Source: Candidatus Binatia bacterium
Lineage (GTDB): Bacteria > Desulfobacterota > Binatia > UBA12015
Assembly: GCA_046327915.1 (NCBI GenBank)
Contig: JAXLXO010000026.1
Coordinates: forward strand, 23,069-87,068
Direction of reading: 5' to 3'
DNA: 64,000 nucleotides
Of this stretch, positions 15,292-33,771 are shown piece after piece. The position numbers and the translations under genes are program-made. Under the pieces are notes generated by a model. It saw only the letters and a list, made by a program, of their open reading frames with translations. It did not search any database and was not told where the DNA came from. Every line of letters starts with the position of its first letter. The stretch's first letter is position 1.

Positions 15292-15360
15292 TGCCGGGGA
15301 CGCCGTTGTCCCGTCACCGGGCCGTCGAGGACCGGTGATCGTCTATGTCGTTCGAGAACG

Positions 15361-15440
15361 CGGTCGCGGTCGACCGCCGCCAGGGGGAGACGGTCGTCGT
15401 TGACCGCCACCCCGCGAGGCGGTCGCAATCGACCGCCGCC
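15361..15440. repeat. Three tandem 21-nt units, each containing a CGGTCG-N4/5-CGACCG inverted repeat
   Basis: Copies at 15361-15381, 15391-15411 and 15420-15440 (period 29-30 nt). Stems are conserved and loops vary (CGGT / TCGTT / CAAT on the plus strand). Confidence 0.85.
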
Positions 15441-15587
15441 GCGCAGGCACGCAAACGGGGGGCCACGATCGCGTTCGCCGCGACGCCCGTCCTCGCGAGG
15501 TTTTTTCGTCGCGGTCAGCGCCGCGATCTGCGCGCTGCCGATCGCGCGGGCAGCGATCGCAGGCAGCTGCCCATCACGACGGCACGA

Positions 15588-17162
15588 TCAGAACGAGAGG
15601 ATGCCCTCCAGATACCCGTAGTTGCCGTCGCTGCCGACGAAGTTCTGATCGATCACGCCCTGTCCCCACGCGTGCGCGTAGAAGGCGTTCATCTTGAAGA
15701 ACGACGTCGGCCGGATCTCGAAGTTGACGTGCGCCAGGTAGGCCAGCTCGTAGCGGCCCTTCGCCGGGACGCCGCCGAAGCCGAAGAAGTCGTTCTTCGT
15801 GGCGCCGCCGCCGAAGTACGCGAGGTCCTGCGAGCTGTTGACGCGCAGCCAGTGGAAGTCCGTGCGCACCGTGACCATCGGCAGCGGGTCCATCAGCGCC
15901 TGCACGAAGACGTCCTGGTTGTTCATCATGTTGTAGAACGGGAACTGCGCGTACAGCCACGCCGTCGGCAGCATCTGGAAGAACGTCTGATGCCGGTCGT
16001 CGTTCGGGTTCGGGTCACCCGACGCGCTGTCGATGCCGAGCCGCAGCCACGGCCGCGACCACAGCTCGGCGAGCTGGTAGCCCGCCTCGACGCCGTAGGC
16101 CCACGCGGTGTGGTCCTGGTTCTGGTAGTTGCCCATCTGGCCGTAGCCGTACGCCAGGCCGTCGGCGAAGCCCGGGCCGAGCTCCTCGACGTGGATCACG
16201 TTCGCGCCGACGGTGTGGATCGTCGACGACTCGCCCTTCGCCGCTTGACGCACGGGCAGCGGACGATTGTCGGTGTAAACGACGTCGCGGTAGTCGTGGT
16301 AGACGAACCAGAACAGGCGTCCGATCGTGTTGCCGAGCTGCGGTGAGTCGGGCAGGTTCAGCGCGACGCCGCCGAGGTCGATGTCGAGCTCGCGGTTCGC
16401 GTCGACCTCGTAGCCGCCGTAGGTCGGGCGGAAGCCGAAGCCGGTGACGTTGATCAGGTCGTTGCCGAAGCCGACCTGGCCGCCGTCGAAGCTGCGGCCG
16501 ACGTGCGTGTAGTCGAACGGCCCGATCAGGCGCTGCCCGATGCGGTTCGCCTGCAGCCACTTCAGGTTGGGCTGCTTCGCCGCCACGTCGACGCCGTCGT
16601 AGTAGAGCTGGCGCCCGCCCTTGAGGAACAGGCCGTCGAGACCGAACAGGCTCTTCGTCTGCGCCCACGCATTGCGCAGGATCACGCCGTTCTGCGTGTG
16701 GCTCATCGTGTTGGCGTAGTACGTCCCGCCGACGCCGACCGCGCCCGACGGCACGTTGCCGAGCGTCGAGTCCTGCACCTGGACGAACATCTCGTAGGGC
16801 GCGCGCGTGACGCGGACGCCGACCTGCAGCTTGTTGCCGACGAAGTTGTAGCGCGAGTCCGGCGTCGGCGAGTCGGAAGGCGGCTGGAACCAGTCGACGA
16901 ACTCGGCGCGGAAGCGGTCGAAGATCTCGAGCCGGATCCTGCTGTCCCACGGACCGTCGGTCTCGATCCGCGGCGCCGCCGACGCCGCAGCCGGCGCCGC
17001 CGGCGCTGCGGCTGGCGCTGCCGCCCCGGCCCCGGAGCTCTGCGCCGACGAAACCGGCGGCAGCACGAGCAACGACAGCGACGTCAAGCACACAGCGGAA
17101 ACGATCGCGCGACGCCGCGGCGACGCTCCCATGAGGACACCTCCTCCCCTTCGGCGAATCAT
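15588..17162 (-). CDS. Outer-membrane beta-barrel porin, alginate-export (AlgE-like) family
   Basis: Signal peptide (...LVLPPVSSAQS), Ala/Pro linker, alternating beta-strand pattern and aromatic C-terminus (...GYLEGILSF). An alternative start at 17132 is possible. Confidence 0.7.
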   Translation of the reverse strand: MIRRRGGGVLMGASPRRRAIVSAVCLTSLSLLVLPPVSSAQSSGAGAAAPAAAPAAPAAASAAPRIETDGPWDSRIRLEIFDRFRAEFVDWFQPPSDSPTPDSRYNFVGNKLQVGVRVTRAPYEMFVQVQDSTLGNVPSGAVGVGGTYYANTMSHTQNGVILRNAWAQTKSLFGLDGLFLKGGRQLYYDGVDVAAKQPNLKWLQANRIGQRLIGPFDYTHVGRSFDGGQVGFGNDLINVTGFGFRPTYGGYEVDANRELDIDLGGVALNLPDSPQLGNTIGRLFWFVYHDYRDVVYTDNRPLPVRQAAKGESSTIHTVGANVIHVEELGPGFADGLAYGYGQMGNYQNQDHTAWAYGVEAGYQLAELWSRPWLRLGIDSASGDPNPNDDRHQTFFQMLPTAWLYAQFPFYNMMNNQDVFVQALMDPLPMVTVRTDFHWLRVNSSQDLAYFGGGATKNDFFGFGGVPAKGRYELAYLAHVNFEIRPTSFFKMNAFYAHAWGQGVIDQNFVGSDGNYGYLEGILSF

Positions 17163-17187
17163 CGTCTGCTCCCTCCCTCGGATCGGC

Positions 17188-18873
17188 TCAAGGGGCCTTG
17201 TGATCGCTCTCCTCGGCCGTCTGCCCCGCAGCGCGCGCGCCCGAGCTGCCGTAGCGCTCCGCCATCGACCGCTTGATCGCCTGCATCTGCTCCTCGGCGC
17301 CCTTCTGGAACCAGGCGTGCTCGGGTCGCGCGAGGATCTCGTCGATCACCGCGTTCGCACGCGCAGCGGCCTCGCCCTGCCCGTTCTCGGCGGCGTGCTT
17401 CGTGATCTCGCGCGCCTGCGGGATCAGCCCCATGTAGAAGCGGTCGGCGACCTCGAACATGCCGTGCCACTGCGTGTAGTCGGGTGCCATCATCGAGGCA
17501 CCCATGCGGGCGCGGCGTCCCTCGTGATGCCAGAGGTAGAACCACGTCCACTCGATCTCCTCGTCGTACTGCGTCGGCGTGAGGAGCTTCTCCTTCGCGA
17601 GCGTGCTCATGATCTGCTGGCCCGGCTTGGCGAACTTCTCGTTGTAGAGCAGCAGCAGACTGTCGTACTGCGAGTAGAACGCGTTGACGTAATCCGGGGT
17701 GTGGCAGTGACCGCACACCTCCTTCATCCGCGTGCGCTTCTGCTCCCAGGTGTCGGTGATCTTCTCCCGACGCTCGGCGGGATCGGTCGCGGTCACGATC
17801 TTGCCGCTGGCGTCGGTGTCCATGAGCAGGCTGACCGGCGGACGGTTGGTCCACGACAGCCGGCTGCCGGGATCGTGCGTGATCTTCCGTCCGTTGCGCG
17901 TGTTCGCCGACATGTGACAGGTCGCGCACGTCGGGGCCGCGGAGTAGTCCTCGCCGAGCACCCACTTCTCCGCGTTCAGGTTCATCTTGTCGTGCAGGTC
18001 GCGGAAGGCGACGCCGTGCTTCGACTCCTCGTAGATCTCCTTCTGCGGATGATCCGGACCGAGGTGGCACTTGCCGCAGTTCTCGGGCTGGCGCGCGCGC
18101 CGCGGCGAGAAGTCGTGGCGGCTGTGGCACGCCGAGCACGAGCCGCGCGAGCCGTCGAGGTTCAGGCGCCCGATGCCGGTGTTCGGCCACGTCTCGCGGT
18201 CGAAGAGCGGACGGCCCTTGTCGTCGCGCAGGATGTTCGCCGCGGCGTCCTTGTCGGTCGGGATGCCCTCGGCGTTCGGCTTGAGCTGGTCCACGTTGAT
18301 CGAGCCGCCGTTCTTCGAGCGCAACGCGACCTTGCTGCCGTGACACTGCTGGCAGCCCGAGAACGCGGCGGCGAGCCCGTTGACCTGGGTTACCTCCATG
18401 CCGGGAGTCTGCCCGTGCGGATTGAACGGCTGCCGCGCCCCCTCGACGTTCTCGGCGAGGAAGTTGTCGAGCGAGGCGAGGATGTTGCCCGCCGCCGCAT
18501 GATGGCTGCGCTCGAACTCCTGCGACACGTCGGCGTGACAGCGCGCGCAATCACGCGGCGTCGTGACGGTCGCGATCAGCTGCCCGTAGTGCTCGAAGGC
18601 GTCGGCGTCCTCCTTCGACGCCTGATGACACTCGACGCACGCGACGCCGCTGCGCGCGTGCTTGCTGCCCTCCCACTGCGCGACGATGCCGGGGTTGCTC
18701 TCGTTGTGGCAGCGGACGCACTCCTGCGACGCCGCCGGCACGGCGATGTGCGGACTCTCGAGCCCGGCCTCCTCGGCGCGGCGGATGACTTCCCGGCGCT
18801 GCACGTAGACGAGGGAAAGAAGAAAGATCAGCGAGGCGCCGATCAGCACCCAGCGCTTCTGGTTCAGCGTCAT
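17188..18873 (-). CDS. Octahaem hydroxylamine-oxidoreductase (HAO)-family cytochrome c with N-terminal membrane anchor
   Basis: Eight CxxCH motifs (CVRCH, CVECH, CARCH, CQQCH, CSACH, CGKCH, CATCH, CGHCH). HAO-like CGKCHLGPDHPQKEIYEESKHG and WHHEGRRARMGASMMAPDYTQWHG. ATG 18873 lies 1 nt after the cytochrome b stop. Confidence 0.85.
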   Translation of the reverse strand: MTLNQKRWVLIGASLIFLLSLVYVQRREVIRRAEEAGLESPHIAVPAASQECVRCHNESNPGIVAQWEGSKHARSGVACVECHQASKEDADAFEHYGQLIATVTTPRDCARCHADVSQEFERSHHAAAGNILASLDNFLAENVEGARQPFNPHGQTPGMEVTQVNGLAAAFSGCQQCHGSKVALRSKNGGSINVDQLKPNAEGIPTDKDAAANILRDDKGRPLFDRETWPNTGIGRLNLDGSRGSCSACHSRHDFSPRRARQPENCGKCHLGPDHPQKEIYEESKHGVAFRDLHDKMNLNAEKWVLGEDYSAAPTCATCHMSANTRNGRKITHDPGSRLSWTNRPPVSLLMDTDASGKIVTATDPAERREKITDTWEQKRTRMKEVCGHCHTPDYVNAFYSQYDSLLLLYNEKFAKPGQQIMSTLAKEKLLTPTQYDEEIEWTWFYLWHHEGRRARMGASMMAPDYTQWHGMFEVADRFYMGLIPQAREITKHAAENGQGEAAARANAVIDEILARPEHAWFQKGAEEQMQAIKRSMAERYGSSGARAAGQTAEESDHKAP

Positions 18874-18874
18874 G

Positions 18875-19927
18875 TCAATGCTCCACCGCGGCTTCCCAGA
18901 TCGTGAGGGCCACGATCGCGAGCACGCCCAACATTCCGATCCACACGCTCGCTTCGCTGAAGCGCGTGTGGCGTCGGATCCACGCATCGATGAACGGCCA
19001 GGCGAACATCACGAACACGATGAACCCGGTCGAGAGGACCGCGACGGTCCCGGAGAAGAGCTTCAGCCAGCGAAAGGCGACGTAGAAGAACCACTCCGGC
19101 TTGATCACCTCGGGCGTCGAGAGCGGGTCCGCCTGCGGCCCGAGGTGCGCCGGCAGCGCCGTCGCGAGCACCGACAGCAGCACCATGAGCAGGATGCCGA
19201 TGGTGAGCTCGGTCATGAGGTGGTCCGGCACGAAGTTGAAGTGTCCGCTCGCGGTCCTGTCGTCGTCGCCCTCGAAGCGGAACTCGGTCACGCCCTGGAT
19301 GCGGATGATCGCGATGTGGATCGCGAGCAGCAGCACCAGCAGGACGGGCAGCACCGCCGCGTGCAGCACGAAGAAGCGCGGCAGCGTGTGCTCGTTGTAG
19401 ACCTCGCCGCCGAGCAGCATCTCCTTCATCGGCTCGCCCACGATCGGCACGCTGGCCGCGATGTTCGCGCCGACCGTGGCGCCCCAGTAGCTGAGCTGCT
19501 CGAAGACCAGGCTGTAGCCGGTGAAGCCGAGCACCAGCGTGCACAGCAGGATGCACATGCCGACCATCCAGTTGATCTCGCGCGGCTTGCGGTACGCGCC
19601 GGTGAAGAAGACGCGCATCTGGTGCAGGATCACCGCGGCGATCATCAGCGTCGCGCCCCACTTGTGGACGCTGCGGATGAACCAGCCGTACGCGGCTTCC
19701 TCGCTGATGTAGCGCACCGACTGGTACGCGCTGGTCGACGACGGCTGGTAGTAGACCGCGAGCAGGATGCCGGTCGCGATCTGGACGATGAAGAGGTAGG
19801 CCGGCGTGCCGCCGAGCGCGAACCACCAGCGCTTCAGGTGATTCGGCACCGGCTCGTTGGTGAGCTCGCGAAGCTCCGCGCCCGAGACCGGAACCCGTTC
19901 CTGGAACCACGCGGCGACGCGGCTCAT
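18875..19927 (-). CDS. Cytochrome b (fused b6/subunit IV type), Rieske/cyt b module 2
   Basis: 350 aa from ATG 19927. His-bearing helices (HKWGATLMIAAVILHQMRVFFTGAYRKPRE; FFVLHAAVLPVLLVLLLAIHI). PEWFFY motif. Confidence 0.85.
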   Translation of the reverse strand: MSRVAAWFQERVPVSGAELRELTNEPVPNHLKRWWFALGGTPAYLFIVQIATGILLAVYYQPSSTSAYQSVRYISEEAAYGWFIRSVHKWGATLMIAAVILHQMRVFFTGAYRKPREINWMVGMCILLCTLVLGFTGYSLVFEQLSYWGATVGANIAASVPIVGEPMKEMLLGGEVYNEHTLPRFFVLHAAVLPVLLVLLLAIHIAIIRIQGVTEFRFEGDDDRTASGHFNFVPDHLMTELTIGILLMVLLSVLATALPAHLGPQADPLSTPEVIKPEWFFYVAFRWLKLFSGTVAVLSTGFIVFVMFAWPFIDAWIRRHTRFSEASVWIGMLGVLAIVALTIWEAAVEH

Positions 19928-20460
19928 CACACGCCCTGCGTGCGGCCGGGACGCGAGACCAGCGCCTCGGTCGGCACGTTGATGAACACCAGCTGGCCGC
20001 GTACCTCGAGCGGATAGCGCGGCAGCGGCGTGTTGCCTTCCTTCGGAGGTCCGCCGGTGGGCTGGCCCTCGGGGTTGAACGTGCCGTTGTGGCACGGGCA
20101 GACGTACTGGTCGCGGTGCGCTTCCCAGTGCACCTGACAGCCGAGGTGCGGACACGTGCTCGACAGCGCGACGAAGTCGGCCGCGGTGGAGCCCTGACCG
20201 AGCCGCGTCACGTTGATGGTCTGGCCGGTCGGCGCCGTCCAGCGCAGCGAGCCTCCCGCGGGCAGCTGGTCGAGCCGCGCGACGTACGTCCACGCGCGGC
20301 GCGCCGGTCCGGCCGGGTAGAGAAAGCGCCCTGCGTAGGCGGCGAACGTGCCGTACGCGGCGGCGAGCGCACCCACCAGGCCGAGGTTCAGCATGCGCGC
20401 GAGCAGATCGCGGCGCTCCGGCACGGGCGCTGCCGGCCCTTCGACGAGTCCCTCCTCCAT
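19927..20460 (-). CDS. Rieske [2Fe-2S] subunit, module 2
   Basis: CPHLGCQVHW...CPCHNGTF boxes. N-terminal hydrophobic anchor. ATG 20460 with SD GAGAGGGGGAA. TGATG overlap with the cytochrome b gene. Confidence 0.8.
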   Translation of the reverse strand: MEEGLVEGPAAPVPERRDLLARMLNLGLVGALAAAYGTFAAYAGRFLYPAGPARRAWTYVARLDQLPAGGSLRWTAPTGQTINVTRLGQGSTAADFVALSSTCPHLGCQVHWEAHRDQYVCPCHNGTFNPEGQPTGGPPKEGNTPLPRYPLEVRGQLVFINVPTEALVSRPGRTQGV

Positions 20461-20532
20461 CGTTCCCCCTCTCGCCTGATGGCGATCCGTGTGCGCACGA
20501 GCCGCACCACGAATCATGCTCTCGCCGTCACA

Positions 20533-21117
20533 TCAAGAATGGACGCGCTCCCGAAGCAGATCGACGGCCAGCGCGACGTGCGAATCCGGTGCGAGATCCG
20601 CGGCTTCGCCGAGGCGCGCGACCAGCGGAGCGAGGTGCGCAGCCACGAACGCGGCACGCGCCGCCGCAACGGTGTGCGCCGCCTCCGCGTCCCCGTTCGC
20701 CCAGGCGAGCGACTCCTTGAGCTCCAGAAATCCGACGAACCCCGCCTCCACGGCCACGTGGTCGGGCGGGTCCTCGGCACGGGGAGCGTAGCCGAACGCC
20801 TCGTAGAAGCGCGCCAGCTCCGAGAACATCCAGCCCGGATCGCCGAACCCCAGCGCACTCGCCTCGCGCGGCGACAGCGGCGCGCCCGGACCGAGCAGCG
20901 CGTGGTACTCGCCCTCGGTGATGCCGCGCGCGGCGGCGACGACCGCGCGCAGCGGCGGATCGTCGATCTCGTCCGCGAGGCGGTCGATCTCGGTGCTCCA
21001 GCCCGCGCGCGGACGCTCGAGGAGAAGTCCGAGCAGGCGCCAGTGCGCCGCGCGGGCGATTCCGTCGGCGACGCGGGTGGTGGCGCCCGCGTCGTGTCCG
21101 TTGCCTGCCGTGCTCAT
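20533..21117 (-). CDS. TorD/NarJ-family redox-enzyme maturation chaperone (delta)
   Basis: 194 aa. Core FYEAFGYAPRAEDPPDHVAVEAGFVGFL is typical of the family. ATGA overlap with the gamma gene. Confidence 0.7.
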   Translation of the reverse strand: MSTAGNGHDAGATTRVADGIARAAHWRLLGLLLERPRAGWSTEIDRLADEIDDPPLRAVVAAARGITEGEYHALLGPGAPLSPREASALGFGDPGWMFSELARFYEAFGYAPRAEDPPDHVAVEAGFVGFLELKESLAWANGDAEAAHTVAAARAAFVAAHLAPLVARLGEAADLAPDSHVALAVDLLRERVHS

Positions 21118-21968
21118 GGTGCCTCCGTCACACGCAGCGGCACCCAGCCGGTGCGCATCTTGCGCGCGCCGACCTCGCCGTGCTCGCCCGACCAGATCGC
21201 GAACGCGATCACGTCCGGAGTGTCGCCGCCGCCTCCGGCGAGCGGCCGCACGAGAACCACCGACCATCCCGACGGCGTGCGCACGCCGCGGCCCGTGGAC
21301 CGTGCGTGCTCCGCCGGGCGCAACGTGCCGGGCCCCTCGCCGACGAGGTCCTGCACCGGCTCGCTGCGCGGCCCCGCGACGTCGTTGCCGACCGCGCGCG
21401 CCGGTGCGTAGCGCTTCGCCATCGCCACCTGCTCGGGCGATCCCTTGACGAGGCTCGCCGCGTCGAACGGATAGCCGTCGACTCCCGCCGCGGGATAGAG
21501 CGCGCGGATGTCGTCCGGGCGTCCGTCGACGTTCGCCTGCCACGAGGCGCGCCAGTAGGTGATCTCGACCGGGCGTCCCGGCTCGCCCATCTGCGGCGCG
21601 GGAGCGTCGGGCGAGCGCTTCGCCGGCGTCTGCAGCGCGCAGGCGTCGGCGAACTTCGCCGGCCCCGGCACGTCGTTCGGGCTCGCATCGGACCAGTCGA
21701 GGCGGACGGCGAGCTTCGTGCCGTCGGTCAGGGCGCGCACGCGGACCTCCGGCGTCGACGGCGCGAGCAGGCGCGGCTCGACGATGTCCTGCAGTTGCAG
21801 CGCGGCGCGGTACTCCGGCGCGTCCTGCCAGGCGGCGTCGGCGGGATCGGTCGCGATCGCGGCGCGCCGCACGGCGCGGACCTCGGTCGCGGGCGTGTCC
21901 TGCGCCGGCTTGCCGCCGCAGCCGGCGAGCAGAAGGAAGATCGGGAGAAGCCGATGCCAGCGTCTCAT
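21114..21968 (-). CDS. EbdC/NxrC-like gamma subunit with lipoprotein-type signal peptide
   Basis: 284 aa. MRRWHRLLPIFLLLAGCGG lipobox. Resembles the ethylbenzene-dehydrogenase-gamma/DOMON-like fold family. SD GAGGAGG. Confidence 0.65.
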   Translation of the reverse strand: MRRWHRLLPIFLLLAGCGGKPAQDTPATEVRAVRRAAIATDPADAAWQDAPEYRAALQLQDIVEPRLLAPSTPEVRVRALTDGTKLAVRLDWSDASPNDVPGPAKFADACALQTPAKRSPDAPAPQMGEPGRPVEITYWRASWQANVDGRPDDIRALYPAAGVDGYPFDAASLVKGSPEQVAMAKRYAPARAVGNDVAGPRSEPVQDLVGEGPGTLRPAEHARSTGRGVRTPSGWSVVLVRPLAGGGGDTPDVIAFAIWSGEHGEVGARKMRTGWVPLRVTEAP

Positions 21969-21979
21969 GGCACACCTCC

Positions 21980-23109
<1,130 letters not shown>

Positions 23110-23110
<1 letters not shown>

Positions 23111-26100
23111 CAGACGTTCTCCTTCTTCGCGTCCGCCGCATCCTGCGGAGCGAGCTCGCCCGCGAGGTAACGCTTCATCACGTCGCTCTCGGTGCCCGGA
23201 CGGAGCCCGAGCTTCGCGGGACGCCACAGCCCCTCGCCGCCCATGCCGCCGGCCTCGGCCCTGGTGATCTTGACGATCGACTCGCGTGGCGCGCCGGTCG
23301 GGCAGTGCACGTCGGGCAGGAAGCCCTTGCCGATCTGCTGGCCGAAGAGCTCCTTGCGCACCAGCGAGTCGGTCATCCACGTCGGCTTCAGCCAGCCGCG
23401 CGTCGCCGCCTGGTGCGATCCGGAGCGGAACATCGCCTGGTAGTTGGTGCGCGGGTTCTTCGCGAGACCGTCGGGACGGCTCTTCGCTCCCTCGACCGAG
23501 CCGGGCGTCGCGCCGTACATGTTGAACCACATCCGCGTCACGCCGCGCGGCGTGCCCGGGTAGGCGCGCGCGCGGCACAGCAGCCGCGAGAACTCGTAGT
23601 CCTTCGCGTTGTTCTGCCACCCGCGGAACGGACGATCGGCGGGATCGGAGTCGATCCACACGTAGTCGCCGTCCGCGACGCCGAGGGCGCGGGCGTCCTC
23701 GGGATTGATGTCGACGTAGCCTTCGGCGACGAACGGCGCGCGCGTGTCGTGCCGGTACATGTCGCCGAACGGGCCGAACAGCATCGCGACGAAGTCGGTG
23801 TCGATCGGCATGGTGTGCGCGCCGTGCCGGTACTTGGGCGTGTGGAAGACGAAGCGGTAGCCGTCGTCGGCGAGCGGATGCTTCGTCGCGCGGGTCTCGG
23901 CCCACGTCAGCACCACGTTGCGGCCCTGCCGGGTCTCGCAGTCGAGCGCGTCCCGCGACACGCCGTAGTCCTCGGGCCCCTTCGGACGCAGCGCCTCGTG
24001 GCGCGGCGCGACGATCACGTTCGGCTGGTAGAACGTGGAGTCGATCGGCTCGCGATGCACGGGCAGGTTCTCGCCCGCCTCGATGAACTCGTCCTCGTCG
24101 CGGTAGAACTCGAGCCGTCCGGTCTTCGTGTACCAGGGCCGGTTCTCCTCGACCTGCTCCCAGCCGACGGCCTTCGGATAGGTGCGCGACATGAGCAGCG
24201 CGGGAATGCCGTTCTTCGCCTTCTCGTGCAGGTCGTCGATGTCGTAGCCCGCCGCGCAGGACGAGCCGTCGAGGATGCGCTGCAGGTAGGTCTGCACGCG
24301 CTTCTCGCGCACGAACTTCCAGCAGTCGTCGAAGCGCTTGTCGCCGGTGCGCTCGGCGAGCGCGTGGCCGACGTTCGCGAGCACCTCGATGTCGCCGCGC
24401 GTGTCGAAGAGGCGCGGCATCGGCGTCTCGGGGAAGACCGTGATGAACGGGTTGGTGACCGAGGCGCAGATGTCCGGGTACTTGAGCTCGGCCCAGGAGT
24501 CGACGGCGAACACGACGTCGGCCCACTCGCACGACGTCGACCACCACCACTCGTTGACGCAGATCATCTCGATCGTCGGCAGGACGTTGACGACCGTGTT
24601 GTAGTGCCACTTGACGTTGCCGAGGATCGAGTTCGCGTTCGCGAACCACATCGACTTCGTCGGCGTCGGGATGTGGCCCTTTCCGGTCAGCGTGCGGTTA
24701 CCGACCTTCAGGATGTGGTGCTCGTGGTTGTAGTAGTGCGCCGACTCGGGCTTCCAGTACTGCTTGACGCGCGCCGGCTTCGACGGATCGAGCTCGAGGT
24801 CGAACGGGTTCTCGTTGATGTACTGCGGCACGCCGTTGAACAGCGAGACGCGGTAGTTGCCGGCGAACGAGCCGACGTTGCCGGCGAAGCGGCCGACGTT
24901 GCCGGTCAGCGCCGCGAGCAGGAAGATGTCGCGGTCCTTGTTGTCGTTGTTGAAGAACTGGTTCGGTCCCATGCCGACCGCGAACAGCGTCGTGCCGGGG
25001 TGGGCCGCGATGTCGCGCGCGAGGCGCTGCACCGCGTCCGCCGGCGCCCACGTCATGTCCTCGACGGTCTTCGGATCGAAGTGCGCGGCGTACTCCTTGA
25101 CCAGGTCGAAGACCGGACGGCAGCGCACCTTGCTCCCGTCCTGCAGCGTGACCTCGACCGAGCCCTCGAGCAGCGCGTCCCTGGTCACGTCGGACTGCGC
25201 TCCCACGGCGTCGCGCACCAGGCGGCGCGGCGCCTTCGCCGCGGCGTCCCACCAGACGTAATCGCCCCACTCGGCGCGCAGCGCCGCGGGCAGGATCTGG
25301 TCGTTCTGCTTGCCCGGCGGCGGCGCCTTCTCGCCGGCGGGCAGGATCTTCGTCTGGTTCGTTAGCGTTGCCGGATCGCCGCCGAAGACGTCCTTCGCGC
25401 TCAGGTTCTTCAGCGTGTCCATGCGGACCAGGACCGGCAGGTCGGTCCACTGGCGCACGTAGTCGGCGTCGTAGAGCTTCTCCTGCAGCACGACGTTGGC
25501 GAGGCCGAGCGCCAGGGCCGGCGTCGTGCCGGGCCGAACGACGATCGCGTCGTCGGCCTTCGACGAGGTCGACGAGTACTCGCACGCGATGTTGACGATG
25601 CGCGTGCCCTTGAGGCGCGCCTCCGTCATCCAGTGCGCGTCGGGCATCTTGGTCGTCACCCAGTTCATGCCCCAGATGACGAGCGTGCGGCACAGCTCGA
25701 CCGAGCTGAGATCGAACTCGACCGTCTGCTGGCCGGTCACCATCGGGTGACCCGGCGGCAGGTCGGTGTGCCAGGAGTAGTTGTCGAAGCCGCGCGCGCC
25801 CATCGCCTTGTCCGGCTCGACGCCGCGGATCTTCGCGTCGAGCAGCGCCATCGAGTTCGCGAGCCGGTACATGCCGAACACGCGCGTCAAGCCAAGAAGG
25901 GGCATGCCGCCGCGGAACTTGAGCACCTGCGTGCCGACGCCCTGCGTCGCCGCGACCACCTCGTCCTGGTAGCCCTGCGCGTGCAGCAGCCTCTGGCCCG
26001 CCTCGCCGTTGTAGGTCTCGGTGATGTTGACCAGCGCCGCGGCGACGATCGCCGCCGCCTCCTCGTGCGTGACGCGCAGCCACTCGTCGCGCGCGCGCTG

Positions 26101-26580
26101 GAACATCTCCTTCGGCGGACGTCCGTTCTCGTCGCGCGGGAAGCCCGCGTCGACCCACTGCTTGAAGCCCTTGCGCACCATCGGGTGGCGCACGCGCCGG
26201 TCGCCGTAGAAGCGGCGCGTGAGCGCGAGCCCCTTCTGGCAGACGCGCGGATCCCAGCGGTGCGACGCCTTGTTGCCGTCGAGATCGGTCGCCTCGCCGT
26301 AGCGCATGGTCGGCCCGATGCGCGTCACCACCCCCGAGCGCACGTACGCGTTCAGGATGCAGTTGTGCGTGTCGTTGGGCGCGCACAGGAAGGTGAATTT
26401 CGAGTCCGTCTTCCAGAGATCGCGGTAGGCGTTCTCCCAGTCGCGGCTCGGGTAGCGCGCGAGGGGGTTCTCGACCGCGTCGAGGCCCCACGCCCGCGTC
26501 GCCGACTGCACGAACGCTCCGAAGCCGAGCGCGCTCGCCCCCTCGAGGAACTGGCGCCGCGACAGGCCGTTGGATTTCAT
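23110..26580 (-). CDS. Tat-exported type II DMSO-reductase-family catalytic alpha subunit (NarG/NxrA-like)
   Basis: 1156 aa. Twin-arginine signal [24 protein letters not shown]-x3-D-x3-C-x39-C FeS motif. [11 protein letters not shown] contains the Asp that ligates Mo in NarG-type enzymes. SD GGGAGGA. Confidence 0.9.
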
Positions 26581-28247
26581 CTCGGGTCCTCCCAGCTGCG
26601 CAGGTACGTCGCGATCGCGACGATCTCGTCGTCGGCGAGCACGCGGTGCGCGGGCGATGCCGAGCCGAAGGCCGGCATCGAGGTGCCGCGGCGGCCGCGG
26701 CGGATCGTCTCGACGAGGTAGGTGTCGCTCGCGGCGGCGAGGAAGCGGCGGTTGGCGAGCGCCGGGCCTTCCTTGCCCTCGCCGTTCGCGCCGTGACACG
26801 ACGCGCACGACTCCGCGTACAGGCGCGCGCCGGTGGTCGCGTCACCGCCGAGCCAGCGCAGCGGCTGCGCGTCGACCGGGGCGTCGACGCCACCGGCGAG
26901 CGTCCGCAGGTGCGCGATCACCGCGTCGATCTCCTCCGGACGCAGGCCACCGGATCCCTCGCCCCACGCCGGCATGCGCCGTCCCGGACGTCCGTGCGTG
27001 ATGGTCTCGCGCAGGAAGCGGTCGGACGCGACGGCGAGGAAGTCGGGATTCGCGACGGCCGGGAACGCCGCCGCGCCGCCGTAGCGCATGCCCTCGCCCG
27101 ACGGACCGTGGCAGGCCGCGCAGAACGTGCCCCAGAGGGTCGCGCCGTCGGCCGCGAACTCGCGCTCGCCGAAGCGCTCGGCGCGGATGCGGTCGCGCGG
27201 CCAGAACTTCTCCGGCCGGTCGCTGCGGCGCAGCGACAGCATGTAGAACGTCAGCAGGTCGACCTGCCTGTCGTCGAGGCCGAGGACCGGCATCCGCGAG
27301 CCCGGCACCACCGCCGCGGGATCGCGGAAGTGCGCGCCGAACCAGCTCGACAGCGTGTGCTCGGGCACGCCGTGGAAGCTCGTCTGTCCGGGGTCCTTGT
27401 CGCCGACGTGCGTGAGATCCGGACCGTCGTCGCCGCCGACGCCGGCGATCTTGTGGCAGCCCCGGCAGCCGAGCTCGTGAAAGGCCGCCTTCGCGGCGAC
27501 GAGATCGGGCGCGCCGACGCGCGAGTCGAGGTAGGCGCGGATGACGTCGCGATCGTGCGCCGGGATCGGACCGAACGACGAGCGCCACGGCCCCTCGGTC
27601 GCGGCCTCGTGCCGCGCGAGATGCTCGTCGTACCAGCGCGGATCGACGCCGCGCGCCCCCACGCGGGACAGGTCGGGCGAAGGGATGCCGGCGGTGCCGG
27701 GACGCGTGGTGCCGCCGCGTCCGTCGAGCGCATGGCAGGCGAGGCAGTCGTTGCGCTCGAGCACGGCGAGGCCCTGCGCGAGATCGGCGCGCCGCGGCAC
27801 GGCGACGTGCGTGTGGCAGCTGCCGCAGCCCGCCCACGCGTAGCGTGCCGGCAGCATCGGCTCCGGCCAGTGCGGCACGGTGCCGTGCGCATCGCCGGTC
27901 TCGGTCGCGCGCCCCTGACCGCCGTGGCAGGCGACGCAGCCGAAGTCCGCCGGATCGTGCGCGACGTCCGGGTGCGGACCGAGCACCGGGTCGCCCGCGA
28001 TGCCGTGCTCGCCGGGCGCCATGCCGACGTGGCAGCTGATGCAGCGGTCGGTCGCGCCCAGCGCGGGCACGTAGCTCTGCCGCAGCTGCACCGCGAACGC
28101 GGCCGCCTGCTCGGGCGCGAGCCGGGCCTGGTAGCCGCGCTGGATGCGGCGCCAGTCGCGGTCGACGTTCTCGCGCCAGATCGCGACCAGCAGCAACGCG
28201 AGCGTTCCGAGGCTCGCGACGAGGAGGAGGATCTTGTTCGCGCGCAC
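26577..28247 (-). CDS. Membrane-anchored heptahaem cytochrome c
   Basis: N-terminal TM helix. Seven CxxCH motifs (CISCH, CVACH, CGSCH, CLACH, CRGCH, CAACH, CASCH). ATGA overlap with the alpha gene. Confidence 0.85.
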
Positions 28248-28257
28248 GGCCGTTCCC

Positions 28258-29796
28258 TCAGTGCGCCGGCCAGTCCGCGGGCGACCAGAAGAAGTGCCAG
28301 TTCGGTCCGCGGAAGTGGACGCCGACGATGGTCAGCACGATGAAGCCGCACAGGAAGCAGGTGAAGAGCGCGAGCGCGCCGGCGCGCGTCGAGTCGTAGC
28401 GCTTGACGCACCAGAGCGACCAGACGGCGTACGCGAAGGCGAGCAGCGTTCCCGGATTGACGAACGTCACGACCAGCTGCGGGATGTCGGGGAACCACTC
28501 GCGCAGCCAGCCGAAGCGGATCGCCAGCGCCTCGATGCCGATCACCGTCGCGAGCCCGAAGACGGCCGAGCGCAGCACCAGCGGCAGGCCGCCCGGGCCG
28601 CCGAACCACTCGCCGGTGCCCTCGGTCTCGCGGTCGAGCAGCGGGATCAGCGTCAATCCCAGGATGACCAGCGTGGGCAGGCCCATGCCGCCCATGAACG
28701 CCGAGTACGCGACCAGCTCCTGCAGGCCGAGGAAGTACCAGGGCGCCTTGGCGGGATTCTCCGGCACGGCCGGATTGGCGAGCTCCTTGAGCGGCGCGTC
28801 GGAGTACAGCGCCAGCGCGAGGCACACCAGCACCGTGAGCATGAAGACCGCGAGCTCGGCGTAGAACAGGTGCGGCATCGCGGGCACGGTCTTCTCCGGC
28901 GCGCGCCCGACCGCCGGCGACGTGCCGCGCACCAGGGCCGCGAGCTGGTAGGTCTTGCGAGGCGCGTCGGTGAACACCGGCTGCACCGGAACCGGCGAGT
29001 CCGCGACGCGCAGGTCCGCGTCCGCGGGCCGCGCGAGCCCGCCGTCCTTGCGGATGCGCCAGAAGTGCACGCCGAGCAGCACGCCGAGCAGCAGAGGCAG
29101 CACCATCACGTGCAGCAGGTAGAAGCGGATCAGCGCCTCTTCGCCGATCTCCTCCGAGCCGAGCAGGATGAACTTCACCATGCCGCCGGGATCGAAGTGC
29201 GACGTCCAGCCGAGCGCGTCGGTGATCTCGCGCGGCGACTGCGCGATGTTCGCGCCGATGGTGATCGCCCAGTACGCGAGCTGGTCCCACGGCAGCAGGT
29301 AGCCGGTGAACGAGAGGCCGAGAGTCAGGACCAGCAGACCCATCCCGATCACCCAGTTGAACTCGCGCGGCTTGCGGTACGACGCCGTGTAGAAGATGCG
29401 CGCCATGTGGGCGAACACGACGAACACCATCACCTGCGCCGCCCAGCGGTGGATGTTGCGGATGAGCTTGCCGGTCGGGACGACGAAGTGGATGTCCTTG
29501 ACGGACCAGTACGCCACCTCGGGGTACGGCTTGTAGTAGAACATCAGCAGGATCCCGGTGCCGAGCGTCACCAGGAACGCGGACAGCGCCGCGATGCCGA
29601 GCCCCCACGTGGTGCTCCAGCGGAACGTCCACAGGTGGACGCGCACGCTGTGCAGGTGCAGGAAGAGGTTGCCGAACACGAACGACGAGCGCGCGCGGTC
29701 GGTGGTCGGCGCACCGGTGCGCGACACCGCGCCGCGCAGCGTCTGCGGCAGCGTGCGCAGGTTGGTGCCGAAGCGCTGCAGGCCGGTGGCGCTCAC
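28258..29796 (-). CDS. Cytochrome b (long, fused type with extra C-terminal helices), Rieske/cyt b module 1
   Basis: 512 aa from GTG 29796 (GTGA overlap). HRWAAQVMVFVVFAHMARIFYTASYRKPRE and FYLLHVMVLPLLLGVLLGVHF His pairs. PWYFLG motif. Confidence 0.8.
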   Translation of the reverse strand: MSATGLQRFGTNLRTLPQTLRGAVSRTGAPTTDRARSSFVFGNLFLHLHSVRVHLWTFRWSTTWGLGIAALSAFLVTLGTGILLMFYYKPYPEVAYWSVKDIHFVVPTGKLIRNIHRWAAQVMVFVVFAHMARIFYTASYRKPREFNWVIGMGLLVLTLGLSFTGYLLPWDQLAYWAITIGANIAQSPREITDALGWTSHFDPGGMVKFILLGSEEIGEEALIRFYLLHVMVLPLLLGVLLGVHFWRIRKDGGLARPADADLRVADSPVPVQPVFTDAPRKTYQLAALVRGTSPAVGRAPEKTVPAMPHLFYAELAVFMLTVLVCLALALYSDAPLKELANPAVPENPAKAPWYFLGLQELVAYSAFMGGMGLPTLVILGLTLIPLLDRETEGTGEWFGGPGGLPLVLRSAVFGLATVIGIEALAIRFGWLREWFPDIPQLVVTFVNPGTLLAFAYAVWSLWCVKRYDSTRAGALALFTCFLCGFIVLTIVGVHFRGPNWHFFWSPADWPAH

Positions 29797-30299
29797 GTCG
29801 TCACCTTCGTTCCCGGCGCGACGGTCTGGCTCTCGTCGACGAGGTAGCTGCCGCCTCCCGCGGACGATACCGCGAGCCACGGCAGCGCCTTCGGCGCCGG
29901 CCCCTTCGTCACCGCGCCGTCGAGCTTGAACTGCGAGCCGTGGCACGGGCACGCGAAGCCCGCGCCCTCCTGCTTGACGATGCAGCCGAGGTGCGTGCAG
30001 ACGGTCGACAGCGCCCACACGCCGCTCGCGTCGCGGAACACCGCGACCGAGCGGCCCTGCGGCACGAACGGCTCGCCGGCGGCCAGCGTCTCCGGCAGCG
30101 TGACGCGGAACTTGCGCGACGGCACCGGCACCACCGCGGCGCGCGGCAGGCGAAGGGCGCCGACCGCGGCGACCGCGAGCGCCGCGACCGCCGACCACAG
30201 CGCGGCGAGGCCCAGGAAGTCGCGGCGCGCCACCGGTGGTGGCGCGAGGCGCGAGCCGGCCGCTGCGGGAGCGTCGTCTGCCGATCGGGTCTGGCTCAT
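29793..30299 (-). CDS. Rieske [2Fe-2S] subunit with Tat motif, module 1
   Basis: 168 aa. RRDFLGLAAL Tat motif. CTHLGC...CPCHGSQF boxes. ATGA overlap with the upstream gene. Confidence 0.8.
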   Translation of the reverse strand: MSQTRSADDAPAAAGSRLAPPPVARRDFLGLAALWSAVAALAVAAVGALRLPRAAVVPVPSRKFRVTLPETLAAGEPFVPQGRSVAVFRDASGVWALSTVCTHLGCIVKQEGAGFACPCHGSQFKLDGAVTKGPAPKALPWLAVSSAGGGSYLVDESQTVAPGTKVTT

Positions 30300-32266
30300 G
30301 CGTGGCTCCACTCGGTCGTGAAGCGGACGCGCTCCATCTCGATCGCGTCCGCGGGACAGCGCATCGCGCACAGGGCGCAGCGGATGCAGCGGTCCTCGTC
30401 CTTCAGGATGGCGGTGATCTCGAGAGCGTCGTCCGCGCACGGCGCACCGTCGTGCGCGAGGCTCGCCGCGAGCACGGCATCGATCTCGGGAGTCGGCTCG
30501 AGGTCGGCGAGACGCGCGAGCTTCAGGCAGGACGTGGGGCAGACGTCGACGCATCCGCCGCACAGCACGCAGCGCGTGCCGTCGAACACCGGCGCGACGC
30601 CGCAATCGAGACAGCGCGACGCTTCGCGCCGTGCGAGCGCCTCGTCGAAGCCGCGCTCGACGGACGTTCCCGGCTCGCCGAGCCGCTCCGCGACCGACCG
30701 CGTCGGGACCTCCTGGCGCGGCACCGACTCGTACTGCTGCTCGCGCCGGTACCGTTCGAGCGGCACGTGCACCTCGACGGCGCGCGGCTGCAGCCGGCTT
30801 CCGGTGACGAACTCGTAGACCGAGCGCGCCGCACGCTTGCCGGACGCGACCGCATCGATGAGCAGCCGCGTGCCGTGCGCGAGATCGCCGGCGACGAACA
30901 CGCCCGGCGCGCTGCTGGCGAGCGTCGCGGCGTCGACCTTCGGCCAGCCGGGGCGGAGCTCCTCGACGTCGCCGCCGCCGTCGGCGAGGAACGACAGGTC
31001 CGGCGCCTGCCCCGCCGCGATCAGCACCGTGTCGCACGGGATCACGTGGCGATCGGCGTCGTCGAAGACCGGCGAGAAGCGGCGCTGCTCGTCGTACACG
31101 CGCAGGCAGCGGCGGACCTCGACCCCGGTCACGCGACCGTCCTCGTCGCGCCGGATCTCGACCGGGCCGAAGCCGCTCCAGCGCTCGATGCCCTCCTCGT
31201 CGCCCTCGACGATCTCGACGGTGTCGGCCGGCATCTCCTCGAGCGTCTCGAGCGACACGAGGTGCACGCGGCGTCCGCCGATCAGGCGTGCCGCCGTGCG
31301 TGCGGCGTCGAGCGCCGCCTGCCGCACGACGGTGCGCGCGACGTCGTAGGCGACGTTGCCGCCACCGATCACGACCGCCTCCCGGCCGAGGTCGAACGGC
31401 TCGTCGAGAGCGACCGCGCGCAGGAGGTCGACGCCACCGTACACGCGGGGACCGCTCTCCCCGGGCAGGCCGAGCGCGCGCGGACGCTTCGCGCCGACGG
31501 CGATGACGACCGCGGCGAAGTCGCGGCGCAGCGCGGCGAACGAGACGTCACGCCCGATCGCGACCCCGGTGCGGATCTCGACCCCGAGGGCCTCGATCAC
31601 CGCGACCTCCTCGCGGATCACCTCGCGCGGCAGGCGGTACGACGGAACGCCGAGCGCCAGCATCCCGGCCGCGATGCGCTCGATCTCGAACACCACCGGA
31701 CGGAAGCCCATCAGCGCGAGGTCGTGCGCCGCCGAAAGACCTGCCGGTCCGGCGCCGACGATCGCCACCGGCGTCCCGTCCACGGGACGGAAGCCGCCGC
31801 GCGCGCACGCACGCACCAGCGCCGCCATCTCTTCGGGTCCGGCGCACACCTTCGGGTCGTGGCCGTGCAGGGCGTCGAGCGTCGCGCGCGCGCCGCGCGC
31901 CTCGGCGCCGAAGCTCTCGCAGGCGAAGCGCTTCAGCGCGCGGATCGCGATCGGCTGATCGGTGCCGAGATACGATCCGTCCGGCGCGATGCGCGGGATG
32001 CGGCCGCGCCGGCAGGCGGCCTCGCACGGCGCACCGCAGATCCGCCCGCAGATCGAGGCGAACGGATTCGGGCCGCGGGCGATGAGATACGCCTCCGCGA
32101 TCCGCCCCTCCGCGATCGCGCGCACGTAGCCGCGCGCGTCGGTGTGCACGGGGCACGCGACCTGACAGGAGATCAGCTGCCGATGGTGGCTCTCGTCGGG
32201 AACGTCGACGTCCAGACGAGGGGTTCCGGGAATGGCGGCCACGGCGTCTGCCAGAGCAACGCTCAT
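30296..32266 (-). CDS. GltD-like NAD(P)H-dependent FAD/Fe-S oxidoreductase with C-terminal 2x[4Fe-4S] ferredoxin domain
   Basis: N-terminal Cys region (CQVACPV, NPFASICGRICGAPCEAAC). Rossmann motifs (VAIVGAGPAGLSAA, VVIGGGNVAYDVA). C-terminal CVLCGGCVDVCP and CIRCALCAMRCP. Confidence 0.85.
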   Translation of the reverse strand: MSVALADAVAAIPGTPRLDVDVPDESHHRQLISCQVACPVHTDARGYVRAIAEGRIAEAYLIARGPNPFASICGRICGAPCEAACRRGRIPRIAPDGSYLGTDQPIAIRALKRFACESFGAEARGARATLDALHGHDPKVCAGPEEMAALVRACARGGFRPVDGTPVAIVGAGPAGLSAAHDLALMGFRPVVFEIERIAAGMLALGVPSYRLPREVIREEVAVIEALGVEIRTGVAIGRDVSFAALRRDFAAVVIAVGAKRPRALGLPGESGPRVYGGVDLLRAVALDEPFDLGREAVVIGGGNVAYDVARTVVRQAALDAARTAARLIGGRRVHLVSLETLEEMPADTVEIVEGDEEGIERWSGFGPVEIRRDEDGRVTGVEVRRCLRVYDEQRRFSPVFDDADRHVIPCDTVLIAAGQAPDLSFLADGGGDVEELRPGWPKVDAATLASSAPGVFVAGDLAHGTRLLIDAVASGKRAARSVYEFVTGSRLQPRAVEVHVPLERYRREQQYESVPRQEVPTRSVAERLGEPGTSVERGFDEALARREASRCLDCGVAPVFDGTRCVLCGGCVDVCPTSCLKLARLADLEPTPEIDAVLAASLAHDGAPCADDALEITAILKDEDRCIRCALCAMRCPADAIEMERVRFTTEWSHA

Positions 32267-32474
32267 GCCCCGACGAACCGCCGATCATCGCCGCTTATGC
32301 GCCCGATTTGTCGCTTCCAAATAGCGACATTGAGAACCCGGCCGGCTCGCGTTCCCGCGGCTGGGAACTCCGGGCGCCGGGAGTCTGCCCGTCATCTGGA
32401 CCGTCGTCGGCCCGTCAGAGGACGACGCCCGCCGCGTCTTCCTCCCGTCGTGATCGGCGAAGCCGGTGCGGACG

Positions 32475-33758: not shown

Positions 33759-33771
33759 GCGCGTGTCCTCT

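Follow-up and report, generated by a model that had tools for sequence, protein, structure and literature searches.

Periplasmic molybdoenzymes that interconvert nitrate and nitrite, and Rieske/cytochrome b (R/b) complexes that link quinols to other carriers, have been described separately and in several combinations. The catalytic subunit of the nitrite oxidoreductase (NXR) of the anammox bacterium Kuenenia, NxrA, shares ~60% identity with the counterparts from nitrite oxidisers, ~40% with those from Nitrotoga and Hydrogenobaculum, and ~20% with NarG, EbdA and the Nitrobacter type (Chicano et al., PMC8387239). Gene clusters that combine an R/b pair with an exported nitrate reductase (R/b-pNar) are known in haloarchaea (PMC3509893). 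For the anammox R/b complexes encoded by kuste4569-74 and kustd1480-85, quinol-based electron bifurcation to NAD(P)H has been proposed (PMC12954380). Here we analyze a locus from Candidatus Binatia bacterium that brings these themes together. It lies in a 64,000-nucleotide stretch of contig JAXLXO010000026.1 (NCBI GenBank assembly GCA_046327915.1, positions 23,069 to 87,068 of the forward strand; hereafter, the window) and consists of an eight-gene cassette A, which joins an NXR-type molybdoenzyme to an NAD(P)-linked R/b module, followed by a three-gene cassette B, which contains a second R/b pair and an octahaem cytochrome c of the hydroxylamine oxidoreductase (HAO) family. The region is best explained as a nitrate-responsive "nitrate island", in which two portable respiratory cassettes stand between nasTS and nirBD-nasC-narK. 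We lean, somewhat beyond an even chance, to the reading that cassette A encodes a cytochrome bc-dependent periplasmic nitrate reductase and that cassette B then reduces nitrite to ammonium or nitric oxide (NO).

The segment 17188-32266 contains eleven genes, all on the minus strand (Table 1), separated in gene order by -4, -4, +10, -4, -1, +11, -4, +72, -1 and +1 nt. The genes were called by third-position GC content, which is 0.85-0.95 in the true coding frames, and by reading of the translations, six-frame lists of open reading frames (ORFs) being crowded with spurious frames in this window of ~70% GC. An earlier note on this DNA, made from the letters alone, had delineated the same eleven genes, and its coordinates, lengths, twin-arginine translocation (Tat) motifs, haem counts and junctions, including the 72-nt gap at 20461-20532, all agree with ours. 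Beyond these, we find a twelfth gene, for a porin, that follows 25 nt on, nasT and nasS upstream, and nirBD-nasC-narK downstream.

Gene neighbourhoods in other genomes show that the two cassettes are independent of each other. Relatives of the catalytic subunit (alpha) of cassette A were sought in one genome per species (GTDB), carrier counts being lower or approximate bounds; 329 were confirmed, and a second query gave at least 587, in more than 10 phyla. The best matches are from Binatia, and the other carriers include Acidobacteriota (many orders), Planctomycetota, Myxococcota, Desulfobacterota-type lineages, Zixibacteria and Eisenbacteria, among others. Alpha identity across phyla is 72-92%, suggesting lateral spread. 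Of the 116 loci with enough flank, 114 have the block gltD-Rieske-cytochrome b-heptahaem cytochrome c ahead of alpha, and beta-gamma-delta lie downstream in 120 of 123. A second R/b pair, nasTS and nirBD are all absent from the fetched cassette A loci (n=144, some contigs having been fetched twice; the taxonomy of these metagenome-assembled genomes, MAGs, is as deposited, and a few are clearly mis-binned). Relatives of the HAO-like protein of cassette B, in turn, are present in at least 591 genomes. Among the 80 best loci, nearly all that extend far enough upstream have orthologs of Rieske-2 and of the 350-aa cytochrome b (61-81% identity across 80 loci) ahead of the HAO-like gene, and no NXR-type gene was found near the HAO-like gene in these 80 loci.

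The closest relatives of the window are instructive in this respect. The whole order of nasT, nasS, the eight genes and the three genes recurs in a relative with 96% alpha identity (Logan SRR14271340, locus L228). The 93% relative (L227) has the eight genes alone, without cassette B, and a Binatia genome at 92% has a porin gene directly after delta. In L227, a toxin-antitoxin-like HTH_3/Gp49 pair (3351-4054) directly precedes cassette A, and the surroundings are those of lipid metabolism; this unrelated neighbourhood is consistent with a mobile cassette. Among the loci examined, cassettes A and B are adjacent only in the window and in the 96% relative. Because each cassette is conserved on its own in hundreds of genomes, the eleven-gene unit comprises two autonomous cassettes: it is a recent, lineage-specific juxtaposition, and the 72-nt gap is its seam. 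The earlier note had seen in these genes the parts of a single anammox-like complex, split around the molybdoenzyme, a view that does not survive the neighbourhood search. An ancestral linkage of bc and GltD genes to the NXR superclade was likewise considered and rejected, since the loci of the sister alpha lineages (Gaiellaceae and the NXR-like P0124) are of the alpha-beta-gamma-delta type and have neither bc nor GltD genes.

Both cassettes are found in the same MAG, on different contigs, in CAZGSN01 (L004, L144) and CAYUAX01 (L075, L135), and co-occurrence without adjacency may be common. An acidobacterial locus (L022, 7228-8408 and 10915-11810) has a second gamma-delta pair ~3 kb downstream of the first. 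In an Anaeromyxobacter sp. MAG (L049, 6650-10171), the genes after cassette A encode, in this order, a glutamine-amidotransferase-like protein, a hemerythrin and an HAO-like octahaem protein; the last gene is 1.5 kb away from the cassette, specifies a signal peptide and lacks an R/b pair. NXR-type and HAO-type genes are here linked a second time, independently of the window.

The alpha subunit is of the NXR type. Residues 6-1148 align to residues 3-1148 of Kuenenia stuttgartiensis NxrA (KsNxrA; 7B04_B, E 1.2e-268), with ~41% identity over 917 positions, and among PDB entries NxrA scores 897 bits, compared with 167 for PcrA, 138 for EbdA and 117 for NarG. This supports the earlier reading of an NXR-type enzyme, and the Tat motif predicts that it is exported. 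The motif CAPNDTHNC corresponds to C67/N70/D71/C75 of KsNxrA, that is, the Cys3/Asp ligands of the FS0 cluster and the substrate-coordinating Asn70. It is kept in the window and in 79 of 80 orthologs, whereas outgroups carry CxPNCTHxC, and the position of the Asn is occupied by Ile in EbdA. The Asp of the W-H-x-D motif, by its alignment with KsNxrA, is taken to be the Mo ligand Asp275. The gamma subunit is an EB_dh protein homologous to KsNxrC (7B04_C, E 2e-16); in the stretches where the haem b ligands Met155 and Lys305 of KsNxrC should fall, a Met and a Lys are conserved.

An exhaustive search of 1.8 billion representative proteins yielded few clusters of full-length alpha neighbours: Gaiellaceae at 54% identity, SAR202/Chloroflexota at 46%, and Thermincola, Halorussus and Ammonifex types at 30-33%. 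A Tectimicrobiota cluster and another group are 40% identical to the window alpha and, both of them, ~60% identical to KsNxrA. In a small and rough neighbour-joining sketch, built without SerA, ClrA or DdhA references, the window family and the Gaiellaceae group form the sister of a branch that unites KsNxrA, Tectimicrobiota, P0124 and SAR202, and within this set the Asp-type FS0 motif is confined to the window family, the Gaiellaceae and the groups of the KsNxrA branch. On sequence criteria, then, alpha is a member of the periplasmic NXR-type superclade and forms a lineage of its own, outside the tight clade of proven nitrite oxidisers. The earlier note had named an alpha inside a non-nitrogen clade as an outcome that would refute it; alpha is not of the ethylbenzene or (per)chlorate type, as far as references were available. 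Identity with NarGHI was rejected given a subthreshold TIGR01580 score, the lack of a NarI gene, the Tat signal and an EB_dh-type gamma. The ethylbenzene/(per)chlorate branch was rejected because the PcrA and EbdA scores are far under that of NxrA and the Asn is kept.

Alpha might instead act on another substrate, such as chlorate, perchlorate, selenate, iodate or an organic compound, and its nitrogen-gene neighbourhood would then be a coincidence; type II DMSO-reductase enzymes changed substrate many times, and this alpha family is known from genes alone. Alpha reaches no NCBIfam equivalog cut-off (TIGR01580 narG, 140.9 bits vs 1084; EbdA model, 149 vs 2000). Nevertheless, both the substrate Asn and the Asp Mo ligand are kept, the NxrA bit score is 5-8 times those of PcrA, EbdA and NarG, and nitrogen- or NO-related neighbours recur in many phyla, so we consider such a substrate very improbable.

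The first four genes of cassette A encode a module akin to the anammox R/b complexes, as the earlier note had recognized. The GltD-like protein, which has no signal peptide and for which four [4Fe-4S] sites are predicted, is taken to be cytoplasmic; its best solved relatives harbour NfnB-like/GltD-like modules (9BOV, NfnA 9N5U, 8OH5, NfnI), and a GltD-like subunit is likewise found in kuste4569-74 and kustd1480-85 (PMC12954380). The closest solved relative of Rieske-1 is the Kuenenia R/b Rieske protein 9RK4 (E 3.9e-15), which is taken to be Kuste4569, judged from its Ser/Tyr box; a second Kuenenia Rieske entry, 9RK3, ranks third (E 4.3e-12). The Rieske-1 box CPCHGSxF (Ser/Phe) is found in all members of the cassette A family. 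Kustd1480, which has a Ser/Phe box, was measured at +335 mV (PMC12954380), and an older correlation placed Ser/Phe Rieske proteins at 200-230 mV and the Gly/Phe class at 120-160 mV (PMC3509893).

In the 512-aa cytochrome b, a b6-like core of four helices is joined in one chain with a subunit-IV-like part and additional helices, and the four canonical haem-ligand His are kept. Also invariant among 65 orthologs are His47, His49, His54, His309, His512 and Cys480; the latter is the only invariant Cys in this set, the N-terminal region has none, and no haem cn cysteine was found. In the anammox complexes, Hauser et al. modelled an extra b haem, bound by an N-terminal His, that would connect to the NAD(P) reductase (PMC12954380). 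The extra invariant His of the 512-aa protein are compatible with this model, without proving it, and may, together with Cys480, mark an additional cofactor site facing the GltD-like subunit. The heptahaem cytochrome c combines four c7/c3-type haems with three class-I/CcoP-like domains, and 69 of 71 orthologs have the 7 CxxCH motifs. A stand-alone paralog of the four-gene module (~40% identity), without a molybdoenzyme, is present in a Vicinamibacterales MAG (L146, 886-5940; also L138), where it is divergent from COX2/COX1-like genes and a Rieske-cytochrome b-HAO cassette.

The proposed route of electrons is as follows. The R/b pair of cassette A would be a dedicated quinol oxidase, with a high-potential branch running from the Rieske protein through the heptahaem cytochrome c, the NxrC-like haem b and the FeS subunit to the Mo site, which would reduce nitrate to nitrite in the periplasm; the assembly would amount to a bc-dependent "pNar" of bacteria, with an NXR-type enzyme as its catalytic part. 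The fixed gene order and the start/stop overlaps suggest that alpha is wired to its own bc complex. On the cytoplasmic face, the GltD/NfnB-like flavoprotein would most likely take the low-potential electron from the b haems and reduce NAD(P)+ or, less likely, feed NAD(P)H into the complex. Cassette B would supply a second, canonical menaquinol-type R/b pair that feeds the HAO-family octahaem enzyme, which would reduce the nitrite formed by cassette A.

A more specific version of this route, in which cassette A is a quinol-bifurcating nitrate reductase that sends one menaquinol electron to periplasmic nitrate and the other, via the b haems, to NAD(P)H, is put forward tentatively, as a possibility that we rate well short of likely. 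The energy released as an electron falls from menaquinol (-70 mV) to nitrate (~+430 mV) can pay for raising the second electron to NAD(P)+ (-320 mV), and the same scheme was proposed for kuste4569-74, with nitrite/NO (PMC12954380). The identical list of parts could also make up a reductant-dissipating NAD(P)H:nitrate oxidoreductase with a Nap-like role, in which electrons pass from the GltD-like subunit to the b haems and on to the quinone site or across the membrane, so as to balance the redox state or supply nitrite to the periplasm. Flavoproteins of the GltD/NfnB type can work in both directions, heterotrophs often have excess reductant to dispose of, and assimilatory genes adjoin the cassettes in the window; NAD(P)H as a donor was also among the options of the earlier note. 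Such an enzyme would, however, waste the large free-energy drop at hand in the homologous anammox complexes, coupled NADH dehydrogenases being in existence (Hauser et al., PMC12954380), and the Ser/Phe box is like that of the high-potential Rieske proteins of Kuenenia, which suit the bifurcation scheme. We consider it rather improbable.

According to the earlier note, the direction of catalysis cannot be read from sequence. Sequence alone, indeed, does not give it, but the neighbourhoods in the window and elsewhere point to the reduction of nitrate and nitrite. Homology of alpha leaves the direction unfixed: Kuenenia NXR works both ways in vitro, with nitrate reduction ~25 times faster than nitrite oxidation (PMC8387239). 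The gene context leans to reduction. In the window, nasTS, nirBD, nasC and narK adjoin the cassettes. In other genomes, an Rrf2 (NsrR-like) regulator is directly upstream of cassette A in 26 loci, and genes for ScdA/RIC di-iron repair proteins (19 loci), Crp/Fnr regulators (17), MoaA (9), YwiC (8) and also hemerythrins lie within 6 kb. The Anaeromyxobacter HAO-like gene that follows cassette A is counted on the same side, as are the cultured nitrate reducers Thermogutta terrifontis and Methanoperedens, whose NarG were placed in the NXR-containing clade (PMC10732223). Finally, the position that the NXR-type cassette takes next to cassette B in the window is, in 26 of the 80 best cassette B loci, filled by NapA, a known nitrate reductase.

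The main competitor, a true NXR, would pass electrons from nitrite via the CcoP-like heptahaem cytochrome c to a terminal oxidase, while the proton-motive force would reverse the R/b-GltD module to yield quinol or NAD(P)H for biosynthesis. Alpha belongs to the same superclade as the NXRs of Nitrospira, Nitrospina and anammox bacteria and, like them, has an Asp-ligated FS0; the cytochrome c domains at the C terminus are CcoP-like; a built-in NAD(P) reductase would help with the reverse-electron-flow problem of nitrite oxidisers; and nitrite oxidation was proposed for related Planctomycetota sequences (Dalcin Martins et al., PMC10732223), a possibility also raised by Poghosyan et al. Against this, alpha is only ~40% identical to true NXRs, which are themselves ~60% identical to each other; the carriers are Acidobacteriota, Planctomycetota, Binatia and MAGs labelled Anaeromyxobacter, Desulfarculaceae and Thermodesulfobacteriota, one of them from a sample labelled AnMBR; the flanking genes are NO, anoxia and nitrate regulators and repair genes rather than oxidases or CO2 fixation genes; the window cassette sits within a nitrate-assimilation/nitrite-reduction cluster; and electrons from nitrite (+430 mV) would have to climb steeply to reach menaquinone or NAD(P)+. 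All told, nitrite oxidation appears unlikely.

In cassette B, the best PDB matches of Rieske-2 are b6f-type proteins, and its CPCHNGTF box is of the Gly/Phe class. The HAO-like protein matches best the Ignicoccus octahaem protein 4QO5 (E 1e-42) and the Kuenenia HAO-like protein 6H5L (E 4e-26). It aligns to Nitrosomonas HAO over residues 242-348 only, short of the position of the C-terminal cross-linking Tyr. In the 26 loci with NapA, the napA gene follows the cassette within ~30 nt (NF010055, 948 bits, above cut-off; e.g., L108, 11657-14029), which supports a reductive role of the HAO-like protein; we infer that it is a putative nitrite reductase that produces ammonium or NO. The bc-Hao-Nap arrangement looks like a widespread module, present in Gemmatimonadota, Acidobacteriota and Planctomycetota. 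Other neighbours of cassette B are small multihaem cytochromes (41 of 80 loci) and divergent haem-copper oxidase (COX1/COX2-like) genes (~12 loci), the latter possibly NO reductases.

Several points weigh against the reading of cassette A as a bc-dependent nitrate reductase linked to nitrite reduction by cassette B. Every retrieved cassette A locus comes from a MAG, and the alpha lineage is known from genes alone; NXR-type enzymes are reversible, and homology cannot set their direction; the T. terrifontis enzyme is absent from the 80 best loci; the linkage to nasTS is seen in the window and the 96% relative only, and the leader of gltD contains no recognizable ANTAR-type hairpins. The cytochrome b does not have the haem cn cysteine of the anammox complexes, so that the NAD(P) branch may differ or not work. 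Why a heterotroph should make NAD(P)H from quinol is not obvious. The two cassettes may or may not be transcribed together. Similar Planctomycetota sequences, moreover, were read as those of putative nitrite oxidoreductases (Dalcin Martins et al., PMC10732223).

The genes around the cassettes complete a ~28-kb region (6740-34713) given over to nitrate and nitrite, which may have arisen by insertion of both respiratory cassettes in a nasTS-nirBD-nasC locus. The coordinates of the nasT-like gene are those of the longest ORF; judging from the 205-aa ortholog in L228, its true start is probably near 34389. The nasS-like gene begins 13 nt after nasT and ends 208 nt before gltD. The gene for the Alginate_exp barrel probably closes the unit, and its product may be an anion (nitrate/nitrite) porin; homologs of it adjoin cassette A in 13 of 80 other loci, before gltD or after delta (e.g., L001, L005, L008-L010, L014, L015, L028). 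The NasC-like ORF (1112 aa) shows Fe4S4/NasC homology from residue ~414, and its first ~400 codons have no domain match.

As for transcription signals, the nirBD leader looks like an ANTAR/NasT-type antitermination (attenuator) site, as judged from a pattern match, and may also be the end of the respiratory transcript; its GC hairpin and T-run end 8 nt short of the nirBD start. The gltD leader folds mildly more stably than shuffled sequence (z = -2.3), shows no ANNGNN-hexaloop (ANTAR-type) hairpins, and gives only chance-level Rfam matches at permissive E-values; given the lack of ANTAR-type signals, NasT control of cassette A is not claimed. Across the whole window, there was no Rfam match at gathering thresholds. 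A promoter and terminator scan of 15200-34900 returned 0 promoters and 4 terminator-like sites, against a mean of 4.4 in shuffled sequence, and no terminator-like or promoter-like site in the 72-nt seam; at such chance-level counts, co-transcription of the two cassettes is neither supported nor refuted.

Table 1. Features of the locus and its surroundings, in order of position in the window
Feature	Coordinates	Strand	Length, motifs and matches
AurF-like di-iron N-oxygenase family gene	5529-6638	-	Adjoins NarK-like transporter
NarK-family major facilitator superfamily transporter	6740-8281	-	
Ferredoxin-like gene	8424-9026	-	Fer4_11
nasC-like assimilatory nitrate reductase ORF	9007-12345	-	795 bits, top match, below cut-off
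Fused nirB-nirD	12230-15241	-	NF011565, 1082 bits, above cut-off
nirBD leader	15249-15408	-	ANNGNN-hexaloop hairpins 15408-15389 and 15312-15297; GC hairpin + T-run 15271-15249; pattern match
Outer-membrane beta-barrel, Alginate_exp family	15588-17162	-	Pfam Alginate_exp 1.2e-17; 25 nt after HAO gene
Cassette B gene 3, membrane-anchored HAO-family octahaem cytochrome c	17188-18873	-	561 aa; 8 CxxCH; Multi-haem_cyto 9e-22
Cassette B gene 2, unsplit cytochrome b (b6 core + subunit IV part)	18875-19927	-	350 aa; Cytochrome_B 9e-54, Cytochrom_B_C
Cassette B gene 1, Rieske-2	19927-20460	-	177 aa; RRDLL; CPHLGC...CPCHNGTF; Pfam Rieske
Seam between cassettes A and B	20461-20532	-	72 nt; 62 nt at same seam in L228 (96% relative)
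Cassette A gene 8, delta: TorD/NarJ-type maturation chaperone	20533-21117	-	194 aa; Nitrate_red_del 8.7e-6; TIGR03482
Cassette A gene 7, gamma: NxrC/EbdC-like periplasmic haem b subunit	21114-21968	-	284 aa; EB_dh 1.4e-16; lipobox LLAGC
Cassette A gene 6, beta: NarH/NxrB-like FeS subunit	21980-23110	-	376 aa; Fer4_11 2.2e-29; TIGR03478 DMSO_red_II_bet 4.5e-79
Cassette A gene 5, alpha: Mo-bisMGD catalytic subunit	23110-26580	-	1156 aa; Tat motif SRRQFLEG; 7B04_B E 1.2e-268
Cassette A gene 4, heptahaem cytochrome c	26577-28247	-	556 aa; N-terminal transmembrane anchor; 7 CxxCH; Pfam Cytochrom_C x3, CBB3, Cytochrome_C7
Cassette A gene 3, cytochrome b	28258-29796	-	512 aa; GTG start; Pfam Cytochrome_B, Cytochrom_B_N_2; NCBIfam ExtP/ExtQ-like
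Cassette A gene 2, Rieske-1 [2Fe-2S]	29793-30299	-	168 aa; Tat motif ARRDFLG; CTHLGC...CPCHGSQF; Pfam Rieske
Cassette A gene 1, GltD/NfnB-like FAD + NAD(P) oxidoreductase	30296-32266	-	656 aa; Pfam Fer4_20, Pyr_redox_2, 2x Fer4
nasS-like NMT1_2 (NrtA-type) nitrate/nitrite-binding sensor partner	32475-33758	-	Pfam NMT1_2 9e-86
nasT-like ANTAR response regulator	33772-34713	-	Pfam ANTAR 5.8e-22, Response_reg

The novelty of the locus lies in the fixed and widespread combination of genes in cassette A, the eleven-gene layout itself being a lineage-specific juxtaposition. Genes of the alpha lineage are labelled in public databases as, for example, "nitrate reductase / nitrite oxidoreductase alpha subunit". 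If the lineage consists of bc-dependent nitrate reductases, the nitrite-oxidation readings of Acidobacteriota, Planctomycetota, Binatia and related MAGs would need revision, and a widespread route of nitrate respiration would have been missed by the standard NarG and NapA markers. In cassette A, moreover, the terminal enzyme at the high-potential end of an anammox-type NAD(P)-linked R/b complex can be identified. As no reaction that would drive kustd1480-85 has been proposed so far, cassette A provides a defined case in which quinol-based bifurcation to NAD(P)H can be tested. If bifurcation occurs, this would be a genetically hard-wired natural case of a mechanism only hypothesized for the anammox bc complexes, one that may operate in hundreds of soil and sediment species. 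More generally, the window illustrates how respiratory cassettes assemble into larger units, with an NXR-type cassette in the position of NapA beside a bc-HAO cassette.

The searchable literature, which leaves out most subscription journals, yielded no description or assay of the eight-gene cassette A and, in agreement with the earlier note, no biochemically characterized system with the arrangement of the window; related alpha sequences were reported only as "novel NXR/NAR", with no assigned role (PMC10732223; Poghosyan et al.). The uniqueness that the earlier note implied is nevertheless qualified by two precedents, a Nar-type enzyme beside complex III genes in T. terrifontis (PMC5673643) and the haloarchaeal R/b-pNar (PMC3509893).

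In the T. terrifontis cluster (THTE_1506-1512), genes for a TorD chaperone, gamma (annotated as "NarI"), beta (NarH) and alpha (NarG) are followed by bc (complex III) genes, an order that, as reported, agrees with that of cassette A; the source is a cultured nitrate-respiring planctomycete, and the cluster is described by annotation only, with no mention of a GltD-like subunit (PMC5673643). T. terrifontis was rejected as a carrier of the exact cassette A, being absent from the 80 best loci of a query with a Thermogutta MAG alpha, and is kept as an analogue; its Nar cluster is probably a more distant relative. The haloarchaeal clusters (narB-narC-narG-narH-orf7-narJ) and the outward-facing Nar of Methanoperedens share with cassette A a Tat-exported NarG-type enzyme, an Orf7/EB_dh-type haem b protein and the lack of NarI. 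The likeness to the haloarchaeal pNar is one of gene architecture, not orthology, the Halorussus alpha being 32% identical and having an all-Cys FS0 motif. Cassette A, which is bacterial and laterally spread, also includes a GltD-like NAD(P) subunit and a heptahaem cytochrome c, neither of which figures in the descriptions of the haloarchaeal clusters.

The NxrABC of Kuenenia (7B04) and the Nitrospira/Nitrospina type resemble cassette A in the full-length alpha with a Tat signal, C-x2-N-D-x3-C motif and Asp Mo ligand, the NarH-like beta, the EB_dh haem b gamma and the TorD-type chaperone. In cassette A, the beta subunit is shorter (376 aa, compared with 430 aa in an NXR-like relative), gamma carries a lipoprotein signal, and the R/b, heptahaem cytochrome c and GltD module is present, unlike in the NXR loci and the nearest sister lineages. 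The anammox R/b complexes (kuste4569-74 and kustd1480-85) have, like cassette A, a GltD-like subunit, a Rieske protein, a b6-type cytochrome b and a multihaem cytochrome c (PMC12954380) and, like the window, an HAO-like octahaem enzyme nearby. They differ in the split b6 and subunit IV with haem cn, in place of which cassette A encodes a single 512-aa protein without the haem cn Cys, and in a multihaem cytochrome c with six or eight haems rather than seven. In cassette A, furthermore, the high-potential partner is an NXR-type molybdoenzyme in the same cassette, and the HAO-like protein belongs to a separate cassette with its own bc pair. Cassette B is likened, by description, to the nap-Rieske/cytochrome b-epsilon-Hao arrangement of Caldithrix abyssi, which includes a Rieske protein, a cytochrome b and an HAO-family proposed nitrite reductase (PMC5317091); in the window, the place that NapA has in the Caldithrix-type arrangement is taken by the NXR-type cassette. 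The closest counterparts of cassette A are the haloarchaeal R/b-pNar in function, the periplasmic NXR in enzyme lineage, and the NAD(P)-linked anammox R/b complexes in the bc module.

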